DNA of 38,890 nucleotides from Escherichia phage ECA2. The translations under genes were made by a program, and so were the position numbers. This document shows, piece by piece, positions 3,551 to 15,802 of this stretch. Location of the stretch: sequence record NC_047766.1. The stretch is one strand, 5' to 3'. Below the pieces are notes generated by a model, which was not told the DNA's origin, made no database searches, and was given only the letters and a program-made list of their open reading frames with translations. Each line of letters opens with the position of its first letter. Positions within the stretch are counted from its first letter, which is position 1.

Positions 3551-3961
3551 ATGTACATTACAAAGTGTTTACAAATCCATGCCGACAACTTTCAGCCGTC
3601 CATAGAGGACATTCTGGAAGCTGAGGCACTTGGTGTTGAACCAAAGGTAATTCCTGATGAGAACACTGTGGCAATGCTTAGCGATAACGCTGTGTTGGCA
3701 ATTGGTGGCAATCAGGGAGACCGAGTGTGGTTCCTTACCTCTAAGTACGTCCCACTGTTTACCTTGAAGGAGCGCTTAGAGTTTCGTAGACTTATCATTG
3801 AATATCGTGATATGATGCTGAGCCAGTACGAGTCCATTTGGAATTTCGTTTGGGTAGGCAATAAGTCACACATTCGTTTCCTAAAGACCATAGGCGCGGT
3901 ATTCCATAATGAGTTTACCGCTGATGGTCAATTCCAATTATTCACTATCAGTAGGAGGTAA
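3551..3961 (+). CDS. 13: Internal virion protein A (gp13)
   Basis: 136 aa ORF between genes 12 and 14; call by synteny and size. Confidence 0.8.
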   Translation: MYITKCLQIHADNFQPSIEDILEAEALGVEPKVIPDENTVAMLSDNAVLAIGGNQGDRVWFLTSKYVPLFTLKERLEFRRLIIEYRDMMLSQYESIWNFVWVGNKSHIRFLKTIGAVFHNEFTADGQFQLFTISRR

Positions 3962-4559: not shown

Positions 4560-6803
4560 ATGGCTAGTAAACTAAATAGTGTTTTAGGTAACATGGCGAC
4601 TCCCGGTATGGAACGACTCCGGGGCGTCAAAGGTATGGACTACCGGGCAGCAACCATTCAGGCTGAACAACCAAGAGCGAGTCTTCTGGACTCCCTAGGT
4701 CGATTCGCTAAGGCTGGTGCCGATATGTACATGGCGAAAGATGAACGCGATAAGCAACGAGCCGATGAGCGCTCCAACGAGATTATCCGTAAGCTGACCC
4801 CTGAGCAGCGCCGACAGGCTATCCAGAATGGTACACTACTGTATCAGGATGACCCATACGCAATGCAAGCCTTGAAGTTCAAGACCGGGCGTAACGCTGC
4901 GTTCCTCGTTGACGATGAGGTTCAACAGGGAATCAAAGAGGGGCGCTTCCGTACCCGTGAAGAGTTGGAGCAGTATCGACACTCACGCCTACAGGAACAG
5001 TCGAAGTCGTTCACTGAGCAGTTCGGCATCAATGAGATGGACGAGGAGTACCAGAAGGGTTTCAATGCGAACATCACCGAGCGCAACATCGCTCTGTATG
5101 GGGCACATGATGCCTTCCTGAGTGACCAAGCGCAGAAGGGTGCTATCCTTAATTCGAAGGTTGAACTCAACGGTGTCCTGTCTGACCCTGACCTACTGTC
5201 TAGTCCTGAGTCCGGTGAGTTCTTCCAGAACTACATTGACAACTCCTTGGTGACAGGGATGACCGACAATCAGGCTCAACAGGTTATCTCTTCTTCCCTG
5301 AATGACGTGCTACAGCGTCCGGGTGGTGCCGCCTTCTTGCAGAACATTGAGAACCGCAAGGTGACTCTTAATGGCGCTACGACTACCTATCGTGAACTGA
5401 TGGGTGATGAGCAGTGGCAGGCAATGATGATTAAGGCACAGCACACTCAATTCCAGAACAACGCGAAGTTAACCGAGAAGTTCCGACTGGATATCAACTC
5501 AGCACTTAACCAAGCGGACACTGGTAAAGGTTGGGAGACTCTTCAAGGCATCAAGGCCGAACTCGATAAGATTCAGCCGGGTGAAGAGATGACTCCTGAG
5601 CGTGAGTGGCTGATTTCCGCACAGGAACATATGCGCACCCGCTTCAAGCAGGAACAAGCTGAGACAGCCAAGCTGATGGACAAGCAACAGAAGACCCTGA
5701 ATAAATCTTTGGTCATCGACAAGCAGTTCCAGAAGCGCCTCAACGGTGAATACGTCTCGACCAACTATAAGGACATGCCGACCAACGAGAACACTGGTGA
5801 GTTTACACATAGCGATATGGTCAACTACGCGAACCAGAAGTTAGCGGAAATCGAAGCGATGGACTTAACGCCAGAACAGAAAGGCAAACTGAAATTGGAC
5901 TACCTACGGGCAGACTCCAAGGAGGGTGCTTTCCGTGCAGCGTTTGGTGAGATGATTACTGACGCGGGTAACGAATGGCAGGCTGCGGTGATTAACGGTA
6001 AGATGCCTGAGAGCACATCAGCGATGGACAACCTTCGTCGCATCCGCAACACTGACCCTGACCTGATTGCCTCTCTGTATCCTGACAAGGCCGAGTTGTT
6101 CCTGACGATGGACATGTTGGATAACCAAGGCATCGACACGCAGGTTCTTATCGACGCTGATAAGGCCCGCTCACAGAAGACCAAGGAGATGCAGTTTGAG
6201 GATGACCGAGCGTGGGCTGCTATGATGAACGATTCAACGAATCCTCAAATCAAGTACATGCCTTCGAGTGTCCAAGGGTATGCCCGGAAGATTTATGATT
6301 CCGTGAAGTACAGGACAGGGAACCCTGATATGGCAACCGAACAGGTCGCAAAGTTCCTCTCTGATTCAACGACTACGTTCTCCAGTAGTGATGTTGAGGG
6401 TGATACCTATGGTGTCCTGCCGAAGAACATCCTTACTGTTTCGGATGACCCTAAGTCGTGGGAGCAGGGTAAGAACATTCTGGACGAAGCCATTAAGGGA
6501 ATCACAGCGGCGAACCCTTGGATTACCAACAAGCAACTGTCGGTGTACCAGCAAGGTGATTCAATCTACCTGATGGACACAACTGGACAGGTTCGCATTC
6601 GGTATGACCAAGAGTTGCTCAAGCGTGAGTATCAGCGCACCGCACAGATGCAAGCTGAGGCAGCACGAGAGAAAGCCCTCAAAGAGGCCAACAAGCGTGC
6701 CCCAATCAGCCGTGTAACACAGGCGCGTGAAGAAGCGCGTAAACGTGTCCAAGAGAAACGGAAGAAGACTCCGAAGTACATCTATGGACGTAAAGAAGAC
6801 TAA
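4560..6803 (+). CDS. 15: Internal virion (core) protein C (gp15)
   Basis: 747 aa, same length as T7 gp15; synteny. Confidence 0.9.
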   Translation: MASKLNSVLGNMATPGMERLRGVKGMDYRAATIQAEQPRASLLDSLGRFAKAGADMYMAKDERDKQRADERSNEIIRKLTPEQRRQAIQNGTLLYQDDPYAMQALKFKTGRNAAFLVDDEVQQGIKEGRFRTREELEQYRHSRLQEQSKSFTEQFGINEMDEEYQKGFNANITERNIALYGAHDAFLSDQAQKGAILNSKVELNGVLSDPDLLSSPESGEFFQNYIDNSLVTGMTDNQAQQVISSSLNDVLQRPGGAAFLQNIENRKVTLNGATTTYRELMGDEQWQAMMIKAQHTQFQNNAKLTEKFRLDINSALNQADTGKGWETLQGIKAELDKIQPGEEMTPEREWLISAQEHMRTRFKQEQAETAKLMDKQQKTLNKSLVIDKQFQKRLNGEYVSTNYKDMPTNENTGEFTHSDMVNYANQKLAEIEAMDLTPEQKGKLKLDYLRADSKEGAFRAAFGEMITDAGNEWQAAVINGKMPESTSAMDNLRRIRNTDPDLIASLYPDKAELFLTMDMLDNQGIDTQVLIDADKARSQKTKEMQFEDDRAWAAMMNDSTNPQIKYMPSSVQGYARKIYDSVKYRTGNPDMATEQVAKFLSDSTTTFSSSDVEGDTYGVLPKNILTVSDDPKSWEQGKNILDEAIKGITAANPWITNKQLSVYQQGDSIYLMDTTGQVRIRYDQELLKREYQRTAQMQAEAAREKALKEANKRAPISRVTQAREEARKRVQEKRKKTPKYIYGRKED

Positions 6804-6821: not shown

Positions 6822-9800
6822 ATGAGCTACGATAAGAACAAACCTAGCGAGTTCGATGGGTTATTTCAAAAAGCGGCAGACAAACATGGGGTCTCCTATG
6901 ACCTGCTTCGTAAATTGGCATTCAACGAATCCAGCTTCAATCCAAAGGCCAAATCTCCAACTGGCCCGAAGGGTCTCATGCAGTTCACCAAGGGTACAGC
7001 CACTGCGCTGGGACTCAAGGTCACTGATGCAGACGATGATGACCGTTACAACCCGGAGTTGGCTGTGGATGCAGCCGCTCGTCACCTGAGTGACCTCATT
7101 CGTAAATACGATGGGGATGAGCTTAAGGCAGCCCTAGCGTACAACCAAGGCGAGGGCAGAAATGGTGCCCCTCAGATGCAGGCCTACGACAAAGGTGATT
7201 GGGCCTCAATCTCTGAGGAAGGTCGTAACTATATGCGCAACCTGATGGACGTAGCTAACAGTCCTCGCAAGGGGGACTTGGAGGCGTTCGGCGGTATCAC
7301 CCCAAAGGCTAAGGGCATTCCATCTGGGGATGCATTTGCTGGAATCGGGAAGAAGCAGACGGTAGGTACTGACCTGCCGGAGTCAACTGGATTCAAAGTG
7401 GAGGGTACGGAGCAGAAAGCACCTAACGTGCCTTATGCTAAGGACTTTTGGGAAAAGACTGGAACAACGCTGGACGAGTTTAACGCACGTTCGACCTTCT
7501 TCGGAATTGGTGATGCAATAAGTGCGGAGCTTCACAACTCTGTACTTGGAGTTGCTTTCCGTGCAGCCCGTAGCGACGATGGTTTTGATTTGTTCAAGGA
7601 CACCATCACGCCTACACGTTGGAATAGTCACACTTGGACGCCAGAAGAGCTAGAGCGAATCCGTAAGGAAGTGAAGAACCCAGCGTATATCAACGTAGTC
7701 ACTGGAGGCTCTCCTGAAAATCTGGACGCCCTCATTAAGATGGCGAATGACAACTATGAGATGGATGCGCGGTCTGCCGATGCTGGTGTTGGGGCCAAAC
7801 TTACTGCTGGTATCGTCGGCGCTGGTGTAGACCCGCTGAGTTACGTTCCGCTAGTGGGCGTAGCCGGGAAGGGTCTCAAGGTGGTTAACAAGGCGTTCGT
7901 CGTTGGTACTCAAAGCGCTGGATTAGCGATTGCATCTGAGGGTATCCGTACATCAATAGCTGGTGGTGAAGCACACTACGCTGATGCTGCTTTAGGTGGT
8001 CTCATGTTCGGTGCTGGTATGAGTGCAATCAGTGACGCCATCGCTGCTGGTATTCGCCGTTCCCGTGGGACTGAGGTTGTTAATGACTTCGCTCCTATGG
8101 CACACCGCTTGGAAGCCCGTGAGACCGCTCTGAACTCTGGTGGGGAAGACCTGACCCGTATGCCTAGCGAGAACCGTGTGTTCGACCGTGAGCACGCTGG
8201 CGTTGAGTATTCACCTCTAGAGACCGAGCCGGGTGCCGTTGTGTTGCCTCAAGGTCAAATCCTGAGCGACACCAACCCACTGAACCCTCAGACTCTTAGC
8301 GAGTTCGAGGCGGTCAACCCTGAGCGTGCCGCTAGTGGTATCTCTTTGGGTGGTTTCACTGAGATTGGCTTGAAGACTCTCCGCTCTGAGAACCCGACTG
8401 TTCGCTCCATTGCGAGTGACCTTGTGCGTTCTCCAACAGGGATGGAATCAGGCTCTAATGGTAAGTTCGGTGCGACTGCTTCTGACATTAAGGAGCGGCT
8501 CCACGCGAACAATCAGCGCACCTACAATCAGCTTTATGATGCTGTGCGTACTGCAATGAAAGACCCTGAGTTCTCCACAGGTGGGGCCACAATGAGCCGT
8601 AAGGAAATCCGACAGGAAATCTACAAGCGTGCAGCCTTGGCGATTGAGCGCCCTGAGCTTCAAGCAAACCTGACAAAGGGTGAGCGGAACGTGATGAACA
8701 TCCTCAAGCAGCACTTTGACCTCAAACGTGAAATCATGGAGAACCCGTCAATCTTCGGCAACACCAAGGCGGTCAGTATCTTCCCCGGCTCACGCCACAA
8801 GGGAACCTACGTGCCAAACGTGTACGACCGCGCTATCAAGATTGAGATGGTTAAACGCTACGGTAATGATGGCTTGCAGCGAGCAATCGCGGAGTCATGG
8901 TTGACGTCTTATCGTGCTCGTCCAGAAGTCAAGGCGAGGGTCGATGAGTACCTGATGGAACTTAACGGTCTCAAATCCGTGCAGGAAGTTACGCCTGAGA
9001 TGGTGCAGAAGCACGCGATGGATAAGGCGTATGGTATTTCACACACCGACCAGTTCTCTGCCTCCTCTGTCATTGAGGATAACATTGAGGGTCTGGTGGG
9101 TATCGAGAACAACAACTTCTTGGAAGCCCGTAACATGTTCGACAGTGACATGGCGGTGACTCTCCCTGATGGTAACACGTTCTCTGTGAATGACCTGCGT
9201 ACCTATGACATGGCTGAAATTCTGCCTGCATACGACCGACGAGTAGATGGTGATGTTGCAATCATGGGTGGTTCCGGTAAGACTACCAAAGACCTGAAAG
9301 ATGAAATCATGGCGCTGGATAAGCAGTCAGAGGGCAACGGCACATTGAAAGGTGAAGTGGAAGCCCTCAAGGACACCGTGAAGATTCTAACTGGTCGTGC
9401 TCGTAGGAACCCGGAAGGCGCTTGGGGTACAGCCCTGCGCTCCGTCAATGACCTCACGTTCTTTGCTAAGAACGCCTATATGGGCGCACAGAACGTTACT
9501 GAAATCGCTGGTATGCTGGCGAAAGGTAACGTCTCTGCGATAACTCATGGCATCCCTATGATTAACGATTGGGTCAACCGTGGTAAACCGCTTCGTGCCT
9601 CTGAGATTAAGGAGATACACGGGATGGTGTTCGGTAAGGAACTAGACCAACTAATCCGTCCGGGACGTGAAGACCACGTGCGCCGACTTAGGGAGTCTAC
9701 GGACACCAGCGCTGCGGTTGCCAATGTGGTCGGTACGATTCGTTTCGGTACTCAAGAGTTGGCTGCACGCTCTCCTTGGACAATGCTCCTAAACGGAACA

Positions 9801-10784
9801 TCAAACTACATTCTTGATGCTGCCCGTCAGGGTGTGCTTGGGGATGTGGCTGGAGCGGCCCTTGCTGGGAAAGCCTCTAAGTTCGGTAAGGCAAACTACC
9901 TTAAGTCTGCCTCTATCAGCCCTGAGCAGTGGAATGGAATCAAGCAGTTGTTCAGAGACTATGCGACTCGTGGAGAAGACGGTAAGTTCACCATTCGTGA
10001 CAAACAGGCTTTCGCTAACGACCCACGTTCAATGGACTTGTGGAGACTGGCCGACAAGGTGGCGGATGAGACTATACTGCGCCCTCACAAGGTTTCCTCA
10101 CAGGACTCCAAAGCGTTCGGTGCAGGGGTGAAGATGGTGATGCAGTTTAAGAACTTCGTCATCAAGTCCCTTAACTCCCGGTTCGTCCGTAGCTTCTATG
10201 AGGCAACGAAGAACAACCGTGCGTTAGACCAAGCGTTGACTCATATCATCTCCTTGGGTCTAGCTGGTGGTTACTACGTTGCGCAGGCACACCTTAAGGC
10301 CGCAAGCCTACAGGAGCACAAACGTAAGGAGTACCTCAAGAACGCCCTTGACCCTAAGATGATTGCTCATGCATCAATCTCCCGTAGTTCACACTTAGGC
10401 TCACCATTGAGTATCTACGACATGTTCGCTGGGATGGTTGGTAGCGATACCTATAAGTACACCCGCTCTACTGTACTCCCTAAAGAGTCCGAGAAGCGTG
10501 ACCCTACCAAGGCAGTGACAGGTAGACAGGTGGCTTCAACTATCGCAGGTGCAGTTGGTGAGCAGGTTCCGGGTTTAGGTTTTGTGGGTTCTGTGGGCGC
10601 AACAGCCATTAACGCCGCTTCCCTGCTGTCTTCTCCAAACAAGGCTACCGCTCTGGAGTTCCGTACAGGACTCTTCAACACCTCTCGTGAGTTGATTCCT
10701 AATGACCCGCTATCGCAGCAACTCATTATGAAAATCTACGAGGCCAACGGTATCCGCATAAAGGAGACGCCGAAGAAACAATAA
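6822..10784 (+). CDS. 16: Internal virion protein D (gp16) with N-terminal lytic transglycosylase domain
   Basis: 1320 aa; N-terminal SLT-like motif (AFNESSFNP...GPKGLMQFTKGTA); synteny. Confidence 0.93.
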   Translation: MSYDKNKPSEFDGLFQKAADKHGVSYDLLRKLAFNESSFNPKAKSPTGPKGLMQFTKGTATALGLKVTDADDDDRYNPELAVDAAARHLSDLIRKYDGDELKAALAYNQGEGRNGAPQMQAYDKGDWASISEEGRNYMRNLMDVANSPRKGDLEAFGGITPKAKGIPSGDAFAGIGKKQTVGTDLPESTGFKVEGTEQKAPNVPYAKDFWEKTGTTLDEFNARSTFFGIGDAISAELHNSVLGVAFRAARSDDGFDLFKDTITPTRWNSHTWTPEELERIRKEVKNPAYINVVTGGSPENLDALIKMANDNYEMDARSADAGVGAKLTAGIVGAGVDPLSYVPLVGVAGKGLKVVNKAFVVGTQSAGLAIASEGIRTSIAGGEAHYADAALGGLMFGAGMSAISDAIAAGIRRSRGTEVVNDFAPMAHRLEARETALNSGGEDLTRMPSENRVFDREHAGVEYSPLETEPGAVVLPQGQILSDTNPLNPQTLSEFEAVNPERAASGISLGGFTEIGLKTLRSENPTVRSIASDLVRSPTGMESGSNGKFGATASDIKERLHANNQRTYNQLYDAVRTAMKDPEFSTGGATMSRKEIRQEIYKRAALAIERPELQANLTKGERNVMNILKQHFDLKREIMENPSIFGNTKAVSIFPGSRHKGTYVPNVYDRAIKIEMVKRYGNDGLQRAIAESWLTSYRARPEVKARVDEYLMELNGLKSVQEVTPEMVQKHAMDKAYGISHTDQFSASSVIEDNIEGLVGIENNNFLEARNMFDSDMAVTLPDGNTFSVNDLRTYDMAEILPAYDRRVDGDVAIMGGSGKTTKDLKDEIMALDKQSEGNGTLKGEVEALKDTVKILTGRARRNPEGAWGTALRSVNDLTFFAKNAYMGAQNVTEIAGMLAKGNVSAITHGIPMINDWVNRGKPLRASEIKEIHGMVFGKELDQLIRPGREDHVRRLRESTDTSAAVANVVGTIRFGTQELAARSPWTMLLNGTSNYILDAARQGVLGDVAGAALAGKASKFGKANYLKSASISPEQWNGIKQLFRDYATRGEDGKFTIRDKQAFANDPRSMDLWRLADKVADETILRPHKVSSQDSKAFGAGVKMVMQFKNFVIKSLNSRFVRSFYEATKNNRALDQALTHIISLGLAGGYYVAQAHLKAASLQEHKRKEYLKNALDPKMIAHASISRSSHLGSPLSIYDMFAGMVGSDTYKYTRSTVLPKESEKRDPTKAVTGRQVASTIAGAVGEQVPGLGFVGSVGATAINAASLLSSPNKATALEFRTGLFNTSRELIPNDPLSQQLIMKIYEANGIRIKETPKKQ

Positions 10785-10806
10785 ACCCTCACTAAAGGGA
10801 GAGAGG
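10780..10806 (+). promoter_or_regulatory. Phage RNAP promoter phi17
   Basis: AATAAACCCTCACTAAAGGGAGAGAGG. Confidence 0.88.
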
Positions 10807-10855
10807 TCACATTCTGGCCTCTTCTCTCCTAATGCTAATTTACAAAGGAGGTCAC

Positions 10856-12544
10856 ATGGCTACAAATATTAAGACCGTGATGACTTACCCGCTGGATGGC
10901 TCCACTACGGACTTTAATATTCCGTTTGAGTATCTGGCTCGTAAGTTCGTCCGAGTGACCCTTATCGGTGTTGACCGAAAGGAACTCATCTTGAATCAAG
11001 ACTATCGTTTTGCAACTAAGACCACAATCTCAACAACGAGAGCGTTGGGGCCAGCGGACGGTTATAACATGGTTGAAATCCGTCGATTTACCTCCGCTAC
11101 CGATAGGCTGGTTGACTTCACCGATGGTTCAATCCTTCGGGCATACGACCTGAACATCTCTCAGGTTCAAACCCTTCACGTTGCAGAAGAGGCTCGTGAC
11201 TTAACGGCTGATACCATTGGTGTGAACAACGATGGCAACCTTGATGCTCGTGGTCGTCGTATCATAAACGTAGCTGATGGTGTTGACCTCGGTGATGTTA
11301 TCACTTTAGGTCAAGTCACTCGGTGGAATGAGTCTGCCCTGAACTCTAAGAACGCCGCTGCTACCTCTCAGGCCGCTGCCAAGACCTCAGAGACCAACGC
11401 TAAGACCTCAGAGACCAACGCTAAGACCTCAGAGACCAACGCTAAGACCTCAGAGACCAACGCTAAGACCTCAGAGACCAACGCGTACCAATGGGCGCAG
11501 CGTGCAGAGGACTCTCCGGTGCAGGGTAGCGAGTTCTCCTCATATCACTACTCACGCAAATCCGCTAAGAGTGCTGCCGCCGCGAGTGTTTCTGAAGATA
11601 ATGCTAAGGTGTCCGAGAATAACTCGAAGACCTCTGAGACCAACGCTAAGACCTCTGAGACCAACGCTGCGGCCTCTGCTCAGACAGCTAAGGATGAGGC
11701 GGCTAAGCTGACCAACATGAATGACTTTGCTGCCGCTATTGATTCAGTCAACGGTAACAATGTTGTCATGAAGGGTGACTTCACCATTAAAGGAAACGGT
11801 AAAGTATCAATACTGAACCACAGTGGGCTATACCAAGATAAGACCGTGAATGGCGTGAACTATGCCAACAGGATTTATATGGATGATGCAGGGGCCATGC
11901 ACTTCGAGAACTACCGTGTGTCTGGTACTTCATCCACCTTACGTGCTGGTTTTGTTATTACAGATACCAACAGGTTTGACTTTACAGGGCCAACGCAAGT
12001 TAATGGTGATATCATCGCATATGTGAATGCGCCCCCTAATCCAGCTATTGGTCAATACCTCAATTCTGTGGCAGTTCGCTCACAGCTTCGGGGCCGTGGT
12101 GCTGAGAATGATCCACTTGGTGCGTACTGTGGTATGTATATTCAGGAGCACGTTGGTACAGACCACGCGATAATCCTTAACCTCAATGGTTTTAGCAAGG
12201 ATACTAACTGGCAGCTATTCTCCAATGGTAAAATATCTACACCACTTGGTGATGTGATGACTTCAGGTTCTGATGTTAGAATCAAGGATGATATCACTAA
12301 ACCTCTTGATGGTGCTGGTGAGCGTATTGACGCAATTGGCATAGTGGAATACACAGAGATTGCCACCGGGGAACGTAAACGTGGGTGGCTGGCCCAACAG
12401 CTTGACACGATTGACCCGCTGTACACATACCTCACGACCACCGCAGAAGGTAGTCTTTTGAATACCAACGACAGGGCGTTGCTTGCTGACGTAATAACTG
12501 AGCTTCAGGCACTACGTCAACGCGTTAAAGAACTCGAAGGATAA
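10856..12544 (+). CDS. 17: Tail fibre protein (gp17), mosaic: T7-like N-terminus, repeat-rich shaft, distinct distal region, C-terminal S74-type chaperone domain
   Basis: Start ATG 10856 with RBS AAAGGAGGT; N-terminus MATNIKTVMTYPLDGSTTDFNIPFEYLARKF matches recalled T7 gp17; C-terminus has SDVRIKDDI...RKRGWLAQQLD...VKELE. Confidence 0.9.
   Translation: MATNIKTVMTYPLDGSTTDFNIPFEYLARKFVRVTLIGVDRKELILNQDYRFATKTTISTTRALGPADGYNMVEIRRFTSATDRLVDFTDGSILRAYDLNISQVQTLHVAEEARDLTADTIGVNNDGNLDARGRRIINVADGVDLGDVITLGQVTRWNESALNSKNAAATSQAAAKTSETNAKTSETNAKTSETNAKTSETNAKTSETNAYQWAQRAEDSPVQGSEFSSYHYSRKSAKSAAAASVSEDNAKVSENNSKTSETNAKTSETNAAASAQTAKDEAAKLTNMNDFAAAIDSVNGNNVVMKGDFTIKGNGKVSILNHSGLYQDKTVNGVNYANRIYMDDAGAMHFENYRVSGTSSTLRAGFVITDTNRFDFTGPTQVNGDIIAYVNAPPNPAIGQYLNSVAVRSQLRGRGAENDPLGAYCGMYIQEHVGTDHAIILNLNGFSKDTNWQLFSNGKISTPLGDVMTSGSDVRIKDDITKPLDGAGERIDAIGIVEYTEIATGERKRGWLAQQLDTIDPLYTYLTTTAEGSLLNTNDRALLADVITELQALRQRVKELEG
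11378..11482 (+). repeat. Five tandem copies of a 21-bp unit (GCTAAGACCTCAGAGACCAAC) encoding AKTSETN heptads in gene 17
   Basis: Four perfect copies plus one with a single mismatch; diverged copies at about 11600-11665. Confidence 0.95.
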
Positions 12545-12584
12545 TCAACAAAGCCATCGGACGGCACAACATAAGGAGAACACA

Positions 12585-12788
12585 ATGCTTTCTTTTGACT
12601 TCAATAACGAGGTCGTTAAGGCTGCGCCGATTGTTGGCACAGGGGTCGCTGATGGTGCGGCCCGACTCTTTTGGGGACTATCGTTAAACGAATGGTTCTA
12701 CGTTGCAGCTATCGCCTACACAGTGGTTCAGATTGGTGCCAAGGTAGTCGATAAGATGATTGACTGGAAACGTGCAAATAAGGAGTAA
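12585..12788 (+). CDS. 17.5: Holin (gp17.5)
   Basis: 67 aa; MLSFDFNNEVVKAAPIVGTGVADGAARLFWGLSLNEWFYVAAIAYTVVQIGAKVVDKMIDWKRANKE closely matches recalled T7 gp17.5. Confidence 0.95.
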   Translation: MLSFDFNNEVVKAAPIVGTGVADGAARLFWGLSLNEWFYVAAIAYTVVQIGAKVVDKMIDWKRANKE

Positions 12789-13147: not shown

Positions 13148-13621
13148 ATGCTAAAACTTTTACGCAGCGCACTCCCTTGGGTACTCGCCGGGACACTCTT
13201 TATGGGTGGCTGGCACTTAGGGTCAACCCATGAGAGAGCAAACTGGAAGGAGGTAATCCAAAATGAATACATTGCGAAAACAAAAGCTGATATCCAACAG
13301 CATAATGCAGTACAGACAGCACTCGATGCCATTGCTAAGCGGCACTCCGATGAGATGGCTGAACTTGAGGGGAGCACTGATGGGATTGTTAATGCTCTCA
13401 ATGCTGATAACAAGCGGCTGCGTGTCAAACTCAAAGCTATCAGTGGAACACCCGGCGATAAACAGCAGTGTATCAGCACAGTTGATGGAAAAGCCGAACT
13501 TGACGAAGGAGATGCTAAGCGTCTTATCGGAATAGCTCAGAAGGGTGATAAGTGGATTGAGAACCTACAGGACACTGTGCGAGTTCTCCAAGGTAAACTC
13601 AAAGAGAAGGAGACTAAGTAA
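13148..13621 (+). CDS. 18.5: Rz-like i-spanin (gp18.5)
   Basis: Start ATG 13148 with RBS GGGAGGTG; N-terminal TM segment; matches recalled T7 gp18.5 (LRSALPWVLAG...DNKRLRV). Confidence 0.88.
   Translation: MLKLLRSALPWVLAGTLFMGGWHLGSTHERANWKEVIQNEYIAKTKADIQQHNAVQTALDAIAKRHSDEMAELEGSTDGIVNALNADNKRLRVKLKAISGTPGDKQQCISTVDGKAELDEGDAKRLIGIAQKGDKWIENLQDTVRVLQGKLKEKETK
13263..13535 (+). CDS. 18.7: Rz1-like o-spanin lipoprotein (gp18.7), embedded in 18.5 in the +1 frame
   Basis: Lipobox-like LITSGC; embedded arrangement as in T7 18.5/18.7. Confidence 0.75.
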   Translation: MNTLRKQKLISNSIMQYRQHSMPLLSGTPMRWLNLRGALMGLLMLSMLITSGCVSNSKLSVEHPAINSSVSAQLMEKPNLTKEMLSVLSE

Positions 13622-14046
13622 TGGCTATGGGAAGACCAAGGGCGTCTCAGTTAGAGCGGGAATGTTCGACCTGCGGTCTGACTAAGCCCGTTTCTGAGTT
13701 TCATAAGAATGGCAACCTGCGGGGTGTCCCTCAGTATAAAACAACTTGTAAGCCATGCCGTAAGGCTGCAACCCAACCAGACACCTACAGGAAATATCAC
13801 CTCAAGGCTCGTTACGGTATTACCGTGGATGAGTATGACGCGTTGGAGAAGGCCCAAGGAGGAGTGTGTAAGATTTGTCAGAGGCCAGAGACTCAGCGTA
13901 AGAGACTCGCCGTTGACCACTGCCATACTACTGGTGCTGTTCGTGGCTTACTGTGTACAACCTGCAATGCGGCAATCGGTCATCTATTGGATGACCCAGA
14001 GATTATCCGTAGGGCTGCTGACTACGTAGGAGGAACCCTTGAGTAA
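13621..14046 (+). CDS. HNH endonuclease, endonuclease VII-type (putative homing endonuclease)
   Basis: 141 aa; motif [40 protein letters not shown] typical of the Endonuclease_7 / HNH family; start overlaps 18.5 stop (TAATG) and 3' end overlaps the gene 19 start. Confidence 0.8.
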
Positions 14047-15802
14047 CTCACAAGAGGCCCGCAATGCCTTAATAGTTGCGCAACTTAAAGGAGATTTTGT
14101 CGCTTTCTTATTTGTCCTATGGAAAGCCCTTTCGCTTCCACAACCCACTAAGTGTCAGATTGATATGGCACGGTGTCTGGCTAACGGAGACAACAAGAAG
14201 TTTATCCTACAGGCTTTCCGTGGTATCGGTAAGTCATTCATCACCTGTGCGTTCGTTGTGTGGACGCTGTGGCGTGACCCTCAGTTGAAGATACTGATTG
14301 TCTCTGCATCCAAAGAACGTGCGGACGCTAACTCCATCTTCATCAAGAACATCATTGACCTGCTGCCCTTCTTGGCTGAGCTAAAGCCTCGCCCCGGTCA
14401 GCGTGACTCTGTGATTAGTTTCGATGTTGGCCCTGCCAAGCCTGACCACTCTCCGTCTGTGAAGTCGGTGGGTATCACTGGTCAGTTGACTGGTAGTCGT
14501 GCTGATATCATCATAGCAGATGACGTTGAGATTCCGTCTAACTCCGCAACTCAAGGTGCCCGTGAGAAGCTGTGGACTCTGGTGCAGGAATTTGCTGCGC
14601 TTCTGAAACCGCTGCCGACTTCTCGCGTTATCTACCTTGGCACGCCTCAAACCGAAATGACCTTGTACAAGGAACTCGAAGATAACCGTGGGTACACCAC
14701 AATCATCTGGCCTGCGCTCTATCCGCGTAGCCGTGAGGAAGACTTGTACTATGGCGACCGTCTGGCCCCGATGCTCCGCGAAGAGTTCAACGATGGGTTC
14801 GAGATGCTCCAAGGTCAACCGACTGACCCCGTGCGCTTCGATATGGAAGACCTACGTGAGCGTGAGTTGGAATACGGTAAGGCTGGCTTCACTTTGCAGT
14901 TCATGCTCAACCCGAACCTTAGTGATGCCGAGAAGTACCCCTTACGCCTCCGTGACGCTATCGTGTGCGGTCTTGACTTCGAGAAAGCCCCAATGCATTA
15001 CCAGTGGCTACCGAACCGTCAGAATCGCAATGAAGAGCTTCCTAATGTGGGACTTAAGGGTGATGATATTCATAGCTATCATTCGTGCAGCCAGAACACT
15101 GGACAGTACCAGCAACGCATCCTCGTGATTGACCCAAGTGGTCGTGGTAAAGATGAGACAGGTTACGCAGTGTTGTTCACCCTGAATGGCTACATCTATC
15201 TGATGGAAGCTGGCGGGTTCCGCGATGGTTATTCCGATAAGACCCTTGAGTCCCTCGCTAAGAAAGCGAAGCAGTGGAAGGTTCAGACCGTGGTCTTCGA
15301 GAGCAACTTCGGGGATGGTATGTTTGGTAAGGTATTCAGTCCTGTGCTCCTGAAACACCATGCAGCCGCTATGGAAGAGATTCGCGCTCGTGGTATGAAG
15401 GAACTACGCATTTGTGATACGCTGGAACCTGTGCTCTCTACGCACCGCCTTGTGATTCGTGATGAGGTGATTCGTGAGGACTACCAGACTGCCCGTGACG
15501 CTGATGGCAAGCATGACGTTCGCTATTCGCTGTTCTACCAGTTGACCCGTATGGCCCGTGAGAAGGGCGCTGTGGCACATGACGACCGACTTGATGCGTT
15601 AGCATTGGGTGTGGAGTTCTTACGCTCTACGATGGAACTGGACGCCGTGAAGGTGGAGGCTGAGGTGCTTGAGGCGTTCTTAGAGGAACACATGGAGCAC
15701 CCAATCCATTCGGCTGGTCATGTAGTTACCTCGATGGTTGACGGTATGGAACTCTATTGGGAGGATGACGATGTGAATAGCAACAGGTTCATTGACTGGT
15801 AG
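14039..15802 (+). CDS. 19: Terminase large subunit (gp19), apparent TTG start
   Basis: 587 aa; conserved N-terminus [30 protein letters not shown] begins at TTG 14039; AGGAGG at 14028-14033; in-frame TAG at 14027-14029 closes the frame upstream. Confidence 0.9.

Follow-up and report, generated by a model that had tools for sequence, protein, structure and literature searches.

A mosaic gp17 tail fiber with a C-terminal Peptidase_S74 chaperone domain in a T3-like podophage

The tail fiber protein (gp17) of Escherichia phage ECA2 is very probably a modular trimeric fiber, in which a T7/T3-type anchor and a coiled-coil shaft carry an exchanged, β-rich tip that is followed by a fused, self-cleaving chaperone of the Peptidase_S74 family. 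We identified the chaperone domain at the extreme C terminus of the protein, found its Ser-Lys dyad to be conserved and its modeled fold to be similar to that of solved chaperone domains, and located the junctions at which the fiber gene is mosaic.

Gene 17 and its flanking signals

The window, i.e., the whole stretch of DNA that was analyzed (38,890 bp), represents a T3-like podophage of the genus Teetrevirus (Autographiviridae), whose genome is given in circularly permuted form. Its closest relative by backbone is Enterobacter phage E-4, with 97% DNA identity over 20 kb; for Yersinia phage phiYe-F10 the value is 96.5%. Gene 17 is situated between gp16 (6822-10784) and a class II holin (12585-12788), and all 562 residues of its product are those of YP_009786115.1 / ANN86232.1 (tail fibers protein [Escherichia phage ECA2]), which was also the top match in BFVD (100% identity). 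On the basis of this position and of its anchor domain, gp17 was classified as a T7-type tail fiber of the Autographiviridae. A search of the literature found no statement on the ECA2 fiber itself. The 90%-identity cluster to which gp17 belongs is represented by a Brucella melitensis entry (WP_349043436.1; phage tail fiber protein, 555 aa). The contig that encodes it measures 39,039 bp and most likely is the genome of a T3-like phage, present as a contaminant of a Brucella assembly or mislabeled within it.

The features of the gene are given in Table 1. An additional in-frame ATG was observed at position 10832, eight codons upstream of the start listed there (MLIYKGGH-MATNIK), and a mechanically called ORF would begin at this codon and encode 570 aa. 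It has no ribosome binding site (RBS) and is probably not used; the start at 10856 is favored by the position of a strong RBS and by the MAT.IK starts annotated in relatives, namely in Poynor, a Klebsiella phage, and in Pantoea phage vB_PdeP_F1M1C (F1M1C below). Upstream of the gene, a late promoter was read from the sequence directly after the gp16 stop codon, and we take AATAAACCCTCACTAAAGGGAGA to agree with the consensus of T3 RNA polymerase promoters. Downstream of the promoter, GAGAGAGG...CCTCTTCTCTCC make up an inverted repeat (within 10781-10830), from which a 5′ hairpin of the gene 17 transcript could arise. A minus-strand ORF at 12142-12468 overlaps gp17, has no supporting evidence, and was treated as spurious. 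Outside the fiber region, a plus-strand ORF of 141 aa at 13621-14046 was assigned to the Endonuclease_7 family (PF02945, 99 bits); it is flanked by the genes for the Rz spanin and the large terminase. The segment that contains it (13535-14058, roughly 520 bp) takes the place of about 78 bp in E-4, Poynor, F1M1C, and NL_ZS_3 and has the look of a mobile (homing) endonuclease inserted in this phage specifically.

Table 1. Features of gene 17 and its surroundings (positions are those of the window).
Feature	Position	Strand	Basis or remark
T3-type late promoter AATAAACCCTCACTAAAGGGAGA	10781..10803	+	Read from the sequence, upstream of gene 17
Ribosome binding site AAGGAGGT	10847..10854	+	Strong; just 5′ of the ATG at 10856
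Gene 17, tail fiber protein	10856..12544	+	562 aa, 60.9-kDa precursor
Tail-attachment domain, aa 1-155 (Phage_T7_tail, PF03906)	10856..11320	+	Pfam, 197 bits
Shaft, aa 156 to ~308	11321..11779	+	Ala/Ser-rich, TSETNAK heptads; T7 alignment
Perfect 21-bp × 5 tandem repeat, five TSETNAK heptads	11381..11484	+	TRF, 100% matches
Cassette without DNA homology to E-4	11348..12583	+	blastn; shaft, tip, chaperone, and spacer to holin start
Distal β-rich tip, aa 309-471	11780..12268	+	AF2 model all-β; C-terminal part of mature fiber if cleaved
Intramolecular chaperone / Peptidase_S74 domain, aa 472-562 (91 residues, 10.1 kDa)	12269..12541	+	Pfam, alignment, model
Ser472 codon, TCT	12269..12271	+	Predicted nucleophile; scissile bond Gly471|Ser472
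Lys477 codon, AAG	12284..12286	+	Predicted general base of Ser-Lys dyad, Ser+5

Anchor, shaft and tip

The N-terminal domain of gp17 could be aligned with the T7 gp17 chains 7boz, 8e4g, and 8dsp. A preliminary description of this DNA had placed the T7-like part at about residues 1-150. That the N terminus is T7-like was borne out, but its extent was underestimated; homology to T7 gp17 continues across the coiled-coil shaft and the junction that ends it, to about residue 310-321. This junction, KLTNMNDFAAAIDSVNGNNVVMKG (KL.N.N...AID.V.G.NV..KG), is conserved and common to T7 gp17 and, as it can still be aligned, the T7-like part is roughly twice as long as first stated. Near-identical fibers were found to differ in the number of TSETNAK heptads within the shaft, with five copies in the window, four in F1M1C, and three in Poynor, pointing to slippage at the repeat as the source of changes in shaft length. 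Another array, shorter than the first, was observed at 11615-11668.

The AF2 model reached pLDDT values above 90 from about residue 330. The tip (aa 309-471) is presumed to be the receptor-binding region, and its sequence varied far more than that of the chaperone domain in an alignment of 61 homologs. Neither gp37_trimer nor gp37_C, which make up the T7/T3-type distal tip, was detected in gp17 by Pfam. With a gp17-like anchor and position, and with these two domains absent, the protein is a gp17 that lacks the T7-type receptor-binding tip.

A Peptidase_S74 domain follows the tip

Pfam analysis of the whole of gp17 showed a match to Peptidase_S74 (PF13884) at residues 472-521, with a score of 24.3 bits (E-value 4e-5) against a curated gathering cut-off of 22 bits; when a C-terminal fragment was used as the query, the score was 25.4 bits. 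The whole-protein score lies ~2 bits over the threshold, versus 36-47 bits for K1F, T5, and E-4. The match is detectable by a routine Pfam scan, and the deposited genome record names a tail fiber only. The domain comprises the last 91 of the 562 residues and directly follows the tip. It opens with S472-D-V-R-I-K477, so that Ser is its first residue and Lys is found at +5, and when gp17 was aligned directly with T5 pb1 and K1F gp17, Ser472 and Lys477 fell on S1264/K1269 of T5 and on S911/K916 of K1F. The preliminary description had proposed an S74-type chaperone at this end of gp17 from a motif resembling that of endosialidases and the T5 fiber, and both the domain and the resemblance are confirmed by these results. 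The region it had delimited, 12269-12544, translates exactly into the 91 residues that it quoted plus a stop codon, and TCT at its 5′ end is codon 472 when counted from the start at 10856.

Residues 301-562 were used as the query of an exhaustive HMMER search, which yielded 258 relatives; 61 of these were aligned. The exhaustive search was adopted for the analysis of architectures because a word-indexed protein search had returned four matches for the distal half and only short fragments for the N-terminal domain. Similarly, a whole-length profile of homologs mostly matched the unrelated N-terminal parts of long fibers, and a trimmed alignment was substituted for it. PF13884 was matched independently by 59 of the 61 aligned homologs of the distal module. 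Within this alignment, D473 and K477 are present in all sequences (61/61), S472 in 60/61, and R475 in 59/61; residues R490, R509, G510, Q514, Y523, and D545 are also invariant. A single homolog (1/61) carries Cys in the Ser472 column, with D, R, and K retained; its dyad may be a thiol variant. When the window's protein was aligned with those of NahiliMali, E-4, T5 (pb1), and K1F (gp17), the Ser, the Lys at +5, and an Arg, a Gly, a Gln, and a C-terminal Arg/Glu were kept in all five.

We also compared the domain with solved structures. A single-sequence phmmer search of the PDB with the last 112 aa gave no match, and solved chaperone domains were reached only with the subfamily profile. The profile of the chaperone region matched the solved S74/ICA chains 8jov (E-value 1.7e-10), the L-shaped fiber of DT57C (8hqz; 1e-5), and MyRF (7dc3; 1.8e-4), and its match to GA-1 (3gud) was weak and non-significant (0.13). 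The crystallized GA-1 chain, 3gud_A, starts at the aligned SDERHK, its first residue being the equivalent of Ser472.

Predicted fold and mechanism

In the AF2 monomer model, the chaperone is built from helices and strands, all short, together with a short hairpin at residues 524-537 and a 23-residue terminal helix (residues 539-561), and the characteristic S74/ICA fold of an α/β unit, a β-hairpin, and a long C-terminal helix is present. The model was found to match solved chaperone domains, with 4uw8 as the top Foldseek match (probability 0.96). The terminal helix is predicted to form a trimeric coiled coil. The domain is unusually short (91 aa; T5, 133 aa; K1F, 154 aa) and is missing the long "tentacle" hairpin region. 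In T5, a "folding sensor" located upstream of the cleavage site has been described, in which R1250 of a neighboring chain and D1239 build the oxyanion hole, as in K1F (PMC4690869). By sequence, a counterpart of R1250/D1239 was not obvious in gp17, and no Arg was seen at a similar distance from the cleavage site; position -13 is Lys459, which is not conserved among the 61 homologs, and the model considered was a monomer. Conserved residues R414, D419, and E431 are found further upstream of the cleavage site than the spacing of the T5 sensor.

Using K1F endosialidase, T5 pb1, and GA-1/phi29 gp12 as models for the mechanism, we infer that gp17 is cleaved between Gly471 and Ser472 and that its folding depends on the S74 domain. 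Three C-terminal helices would form a coiled coil that sets the chains in register and would act as a template on which the intertwined tip folds. After correct folding of the trimer, Lys477 would activate Ser472, the Gly471-Ser472 bond would be cut in each chain, and the 10.1-kDa chaperone (residues 472-562) would dissociate. The virion fiber would then consist of residues 1-471 (50.8 kDa) of a 60.9-kDa precursor. The practical value of this prediction is modest, namely, that the mature virion fiber is expected to end at residue 471 rather than 562, and that the C-terminal 91 residues should be kept for folding when the fiber is expressed or grafted onto another T3/T7 chassis.

The distal half of gp17 is a recombinant cassette

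Comparison with E-4 by blastn showed 96.6% identity through gp16 and into gp17 as far as position 11347, and again from 12584, the base immediately preceding the start codon of the holin gene. In Klebsiella phage NL_ZS_3, homology extended to 11730 and was regained from 12569, whereas Poynor and F1M1C were collinear with the window across the whole fiber (94-96%). The G+C content of the distal module was 0.44-0.47 versus about 0.50-0.53 nearby. Analysis of the homologs showed the same tip-plus-chaperone module behind T7-type N termini (6/61), Collar domains (9/61), and other anchors, in Ningirsuvirus podophages (NahiliMali, 60% identity), Klebsiella phages of about 48 kb, and Webervirus, T5-like, and T4-like phages. 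Homologs of the tip are found on fibers of podo-, sipho-, and myophages. The presence of one module on many different anchors indicates that tip and chaperone move together as a single cassette, in keeping with a chaperone whose specificity is for the domain that it folds. At least four types of distal module were distinguished within Teetrevirus, i.e., those of T3 (without a chaperone), phiYeO3-12 (S74), NL_ZS_3 (without S74), and the window (S74).

Taken together, these data show that the distal half of gp17 is a recombinant cassette and that the fiber is a mosaic with a different receptor-binding region, as the preliminary description had claimed. Its further claim of a host-range module swap holds for the cassette; however, relative to the nearest relatives the swap brought in no chaperone, because fibers of the E-4/phiYeO3-12 type have an S74 domain of their own. 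The presence of the domain on these fibers, in the same genus, makes it unsurprising for a Teetrevirus. The tip would be the determinant of host range, but fibers with 93-97% amino acid identity have been reported for phages of Escherichia, Klebsiella, and Pantoea, and their occurrence in three host genera suggests that the tip may recognize a widely shared receptor rather than confer a narrow host range. For fiber swapping, the junctions at about aa 164, at about aa 292-308, and in the gp17/holin spacer offer natural splice points.

The gp17 proteins of Poynor and F1M1C correspond to the window's fiber over its full length, chaperone domain included, with 95 and 94% identity in DNA and 97 and 93% in protein, respectively; they differ in their heptad numbers (see above) and in their reported hosts. 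The F1M1C record (OL744209.1) contains a 127-bp direct tandem duplication in the chaperone domain (locus about 3558-3811, corresponding to 12313-12439 of the window). This duplication shifts the reading frame so that gp17 ends at 523 aa (...LTTCW*), and the last 66 chaperone residues are annotated as a separate hypothetical protein that starts with VEYTEIATGER. Either an assembly error or a naturally split chaperone could account for the two ORFs. The NL_ZS_3 gp17 combines the shaft found in the window with a different tip that has no S74 domain, and a 128-aa ORF without a Pfam match (locus 4619-5005) lies after its fiber gene. This ORF may encode a separate fiber-assembly chaperone that performs in trans what the window's fused domain does. 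A downstream chaperone gene of this kind was sought in the window and none was found; the holin starts 41 nt past the gp17 stop codon.

Alternative explanations

Because the E-value of the Pfam match is only 4e-5 and the phmmer search of the PDB came back empty, we considered that an unrelated fiber terminus might resemble S74 by chance, through a short motif (SDxRxK ... AQQ ... ELE). This reading has next to no credibility in our judgment and is refuted by the agreement of the model with solved chaperone domains, by the PF13884 matches of 59 of the 61 homologs, and by the solved chains that the profile reached; the S74 match is beyond chance on three independent lines. A true S74 homolog could instead be retained on the mature fiber as a degenerate chaperone that is cleaved slowly or not at all and forms part of the tip or a cap. 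The marginal Pfam score, the minimal length of the domain with its missing tentacle region, and the lack of a conserved Arg that would correspond to Arg1250 of the T5 sensor would be in keeping with such a protein, yet 61 divergent homologs show next to no variation at the dyad Ser and Lys or at the adjoining D and R, as selection for catalysis predicts. In addition, conservation is far higher in the chaperone part than in the tip, and all characterized relatives that possess the dyad cleave (PMC4690869, PMC7582827), leaving a retained chaperone very improbable. It is also conceivable, if rather improbable, that a "minimal" S74 subfamily, without long tentacles or an obvious Arg sensor, moves with a particular β-rich tip as one self-folding cassette among podo-, sipho-, and myophages of Enterobacterales, and that the split in F1M1C is real, with the helix acting in trans. 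Were this true, the cassette would be a compact, portable host-range module for the engineering of T3/T7-type phages.

The history of the cassette can be read in another way as well; fiber alleles that are old and stably inherited within Teetrevirus may account for the difference from E-4, instead of a recent swap of host range into this lineage. In Poynor and F1M1C, the identity of the fiber about equals that of the flanking genes (94-96%), implying that the cassette was inherited within this sub-lineage, and the distal-module types that exist side by side in the genus point the same way. Against this, the flanks shared with E-4 are 96.6% identical while the cassette between them cannot be aligned, the breakpoints fall sharply at domain or gene boundaries, the G+C content drops in the distal module, and homologous modules occur in unrelated phage families. 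Together, these four observations require that recombination took place at some point in the history of the fiber. We regard long inheritance of old alleles as a possibility of some weight but as less probable than not having occurred, and prefer the exchange of the distal module by recombination.

Comparison with known systems

The gp17 proteins of T7 and T3 share with the window's fiber the N-terminal domain, the architecture of the shaft, and the motif at the shaft/tip junction. They differ in the distal part, where gp37_trimer and gp37_C were found in both and no S74 domain, in contrast to the S74 domain of the window's fiber; the absence of the domain from the T7 tip had been stated correctly in the preliminary description. 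The C-terminal domain of the K1F gp17 endosialidase (endoNF; PDB 3GW6) is a founding member of Peptidase_S74, and K1F gp17 scored 36.4 bits with the family model. K1F gp17 is an enzymatic sialidase tailspike with a 154-aa chaperone, whereas the window's protein ends in a fiber tip, and the identity between the two is about 8-21%. The chaperone of T5 pb1 shows a sequence identity of about 17% and has 133 aa with 50-Å hairpin tentacles where the window's domain has a short hairpin only. T5 is a siphophage whose fiber binds polymannose O-antigen; the window's fiber belongs to a podophage. In T5, the S1264A substitution blocks cleavage, and the mechanism and the role of the Lys have been described (PMC4690869).

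Among the closest systems are those of the clade of Yersinia phage phiYeO3-12 (E-2/E-3/E-4, phiYe-F10, vB_YenP_AP5/AP10, and MeretOppenheim Bas102), which share the genus-level backbone with 95-97% DNA identity. As in the window, their fibers have a T7-type N-terminal domain and a C-terminal Peptidase_S74 domain that begins at an SDxRLK motif. The S74 domain of E-4 gp17 scored 47.5 bits, and its subtype is common to phiYeO3-12, phiYe-F10, AP5, AP10, E-2/E-3, and MeretOppenheim. The shaft, tip, and chaperone of this clade nevertheless constitute a different cassette; its chaperones share little with the window's beyond the motif (5-9 bits with the profile of the window's subfamily), and its fibers measure 645-647 aa with a chaperone of 107-109 aa, versus 562 and 91 aa. 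An S74 domain has been noted in the fibers of AP5, AP10, and phiYe-F10 (PMC6950378), in Teseptimavirus MeretOppenheim (PMC11990801), and at residues 539-645 of phiYeO3-12 gp17 (PMC7582827). When recombinant phiYeO3-12 gp17 was resolved by SDS-PAGE, a shortened protein of ~58 kDa and an ~11-kDa fragment were observed against a theoretical mass of 69.4 kDa, and the authors ascribed these products to self-cleavage (PMC7582827). The ~11-kDa fragment has the size of the S74 domain of that protein. The arrangement is thus already well known in T7/T3-like phages, and the window's fiber is a further, ordinary example of it; given the S74 domain of K1F gp17 and the gel evidence of self-cleavage in phiYeO3-12, the understanding of these systems is unchanged.
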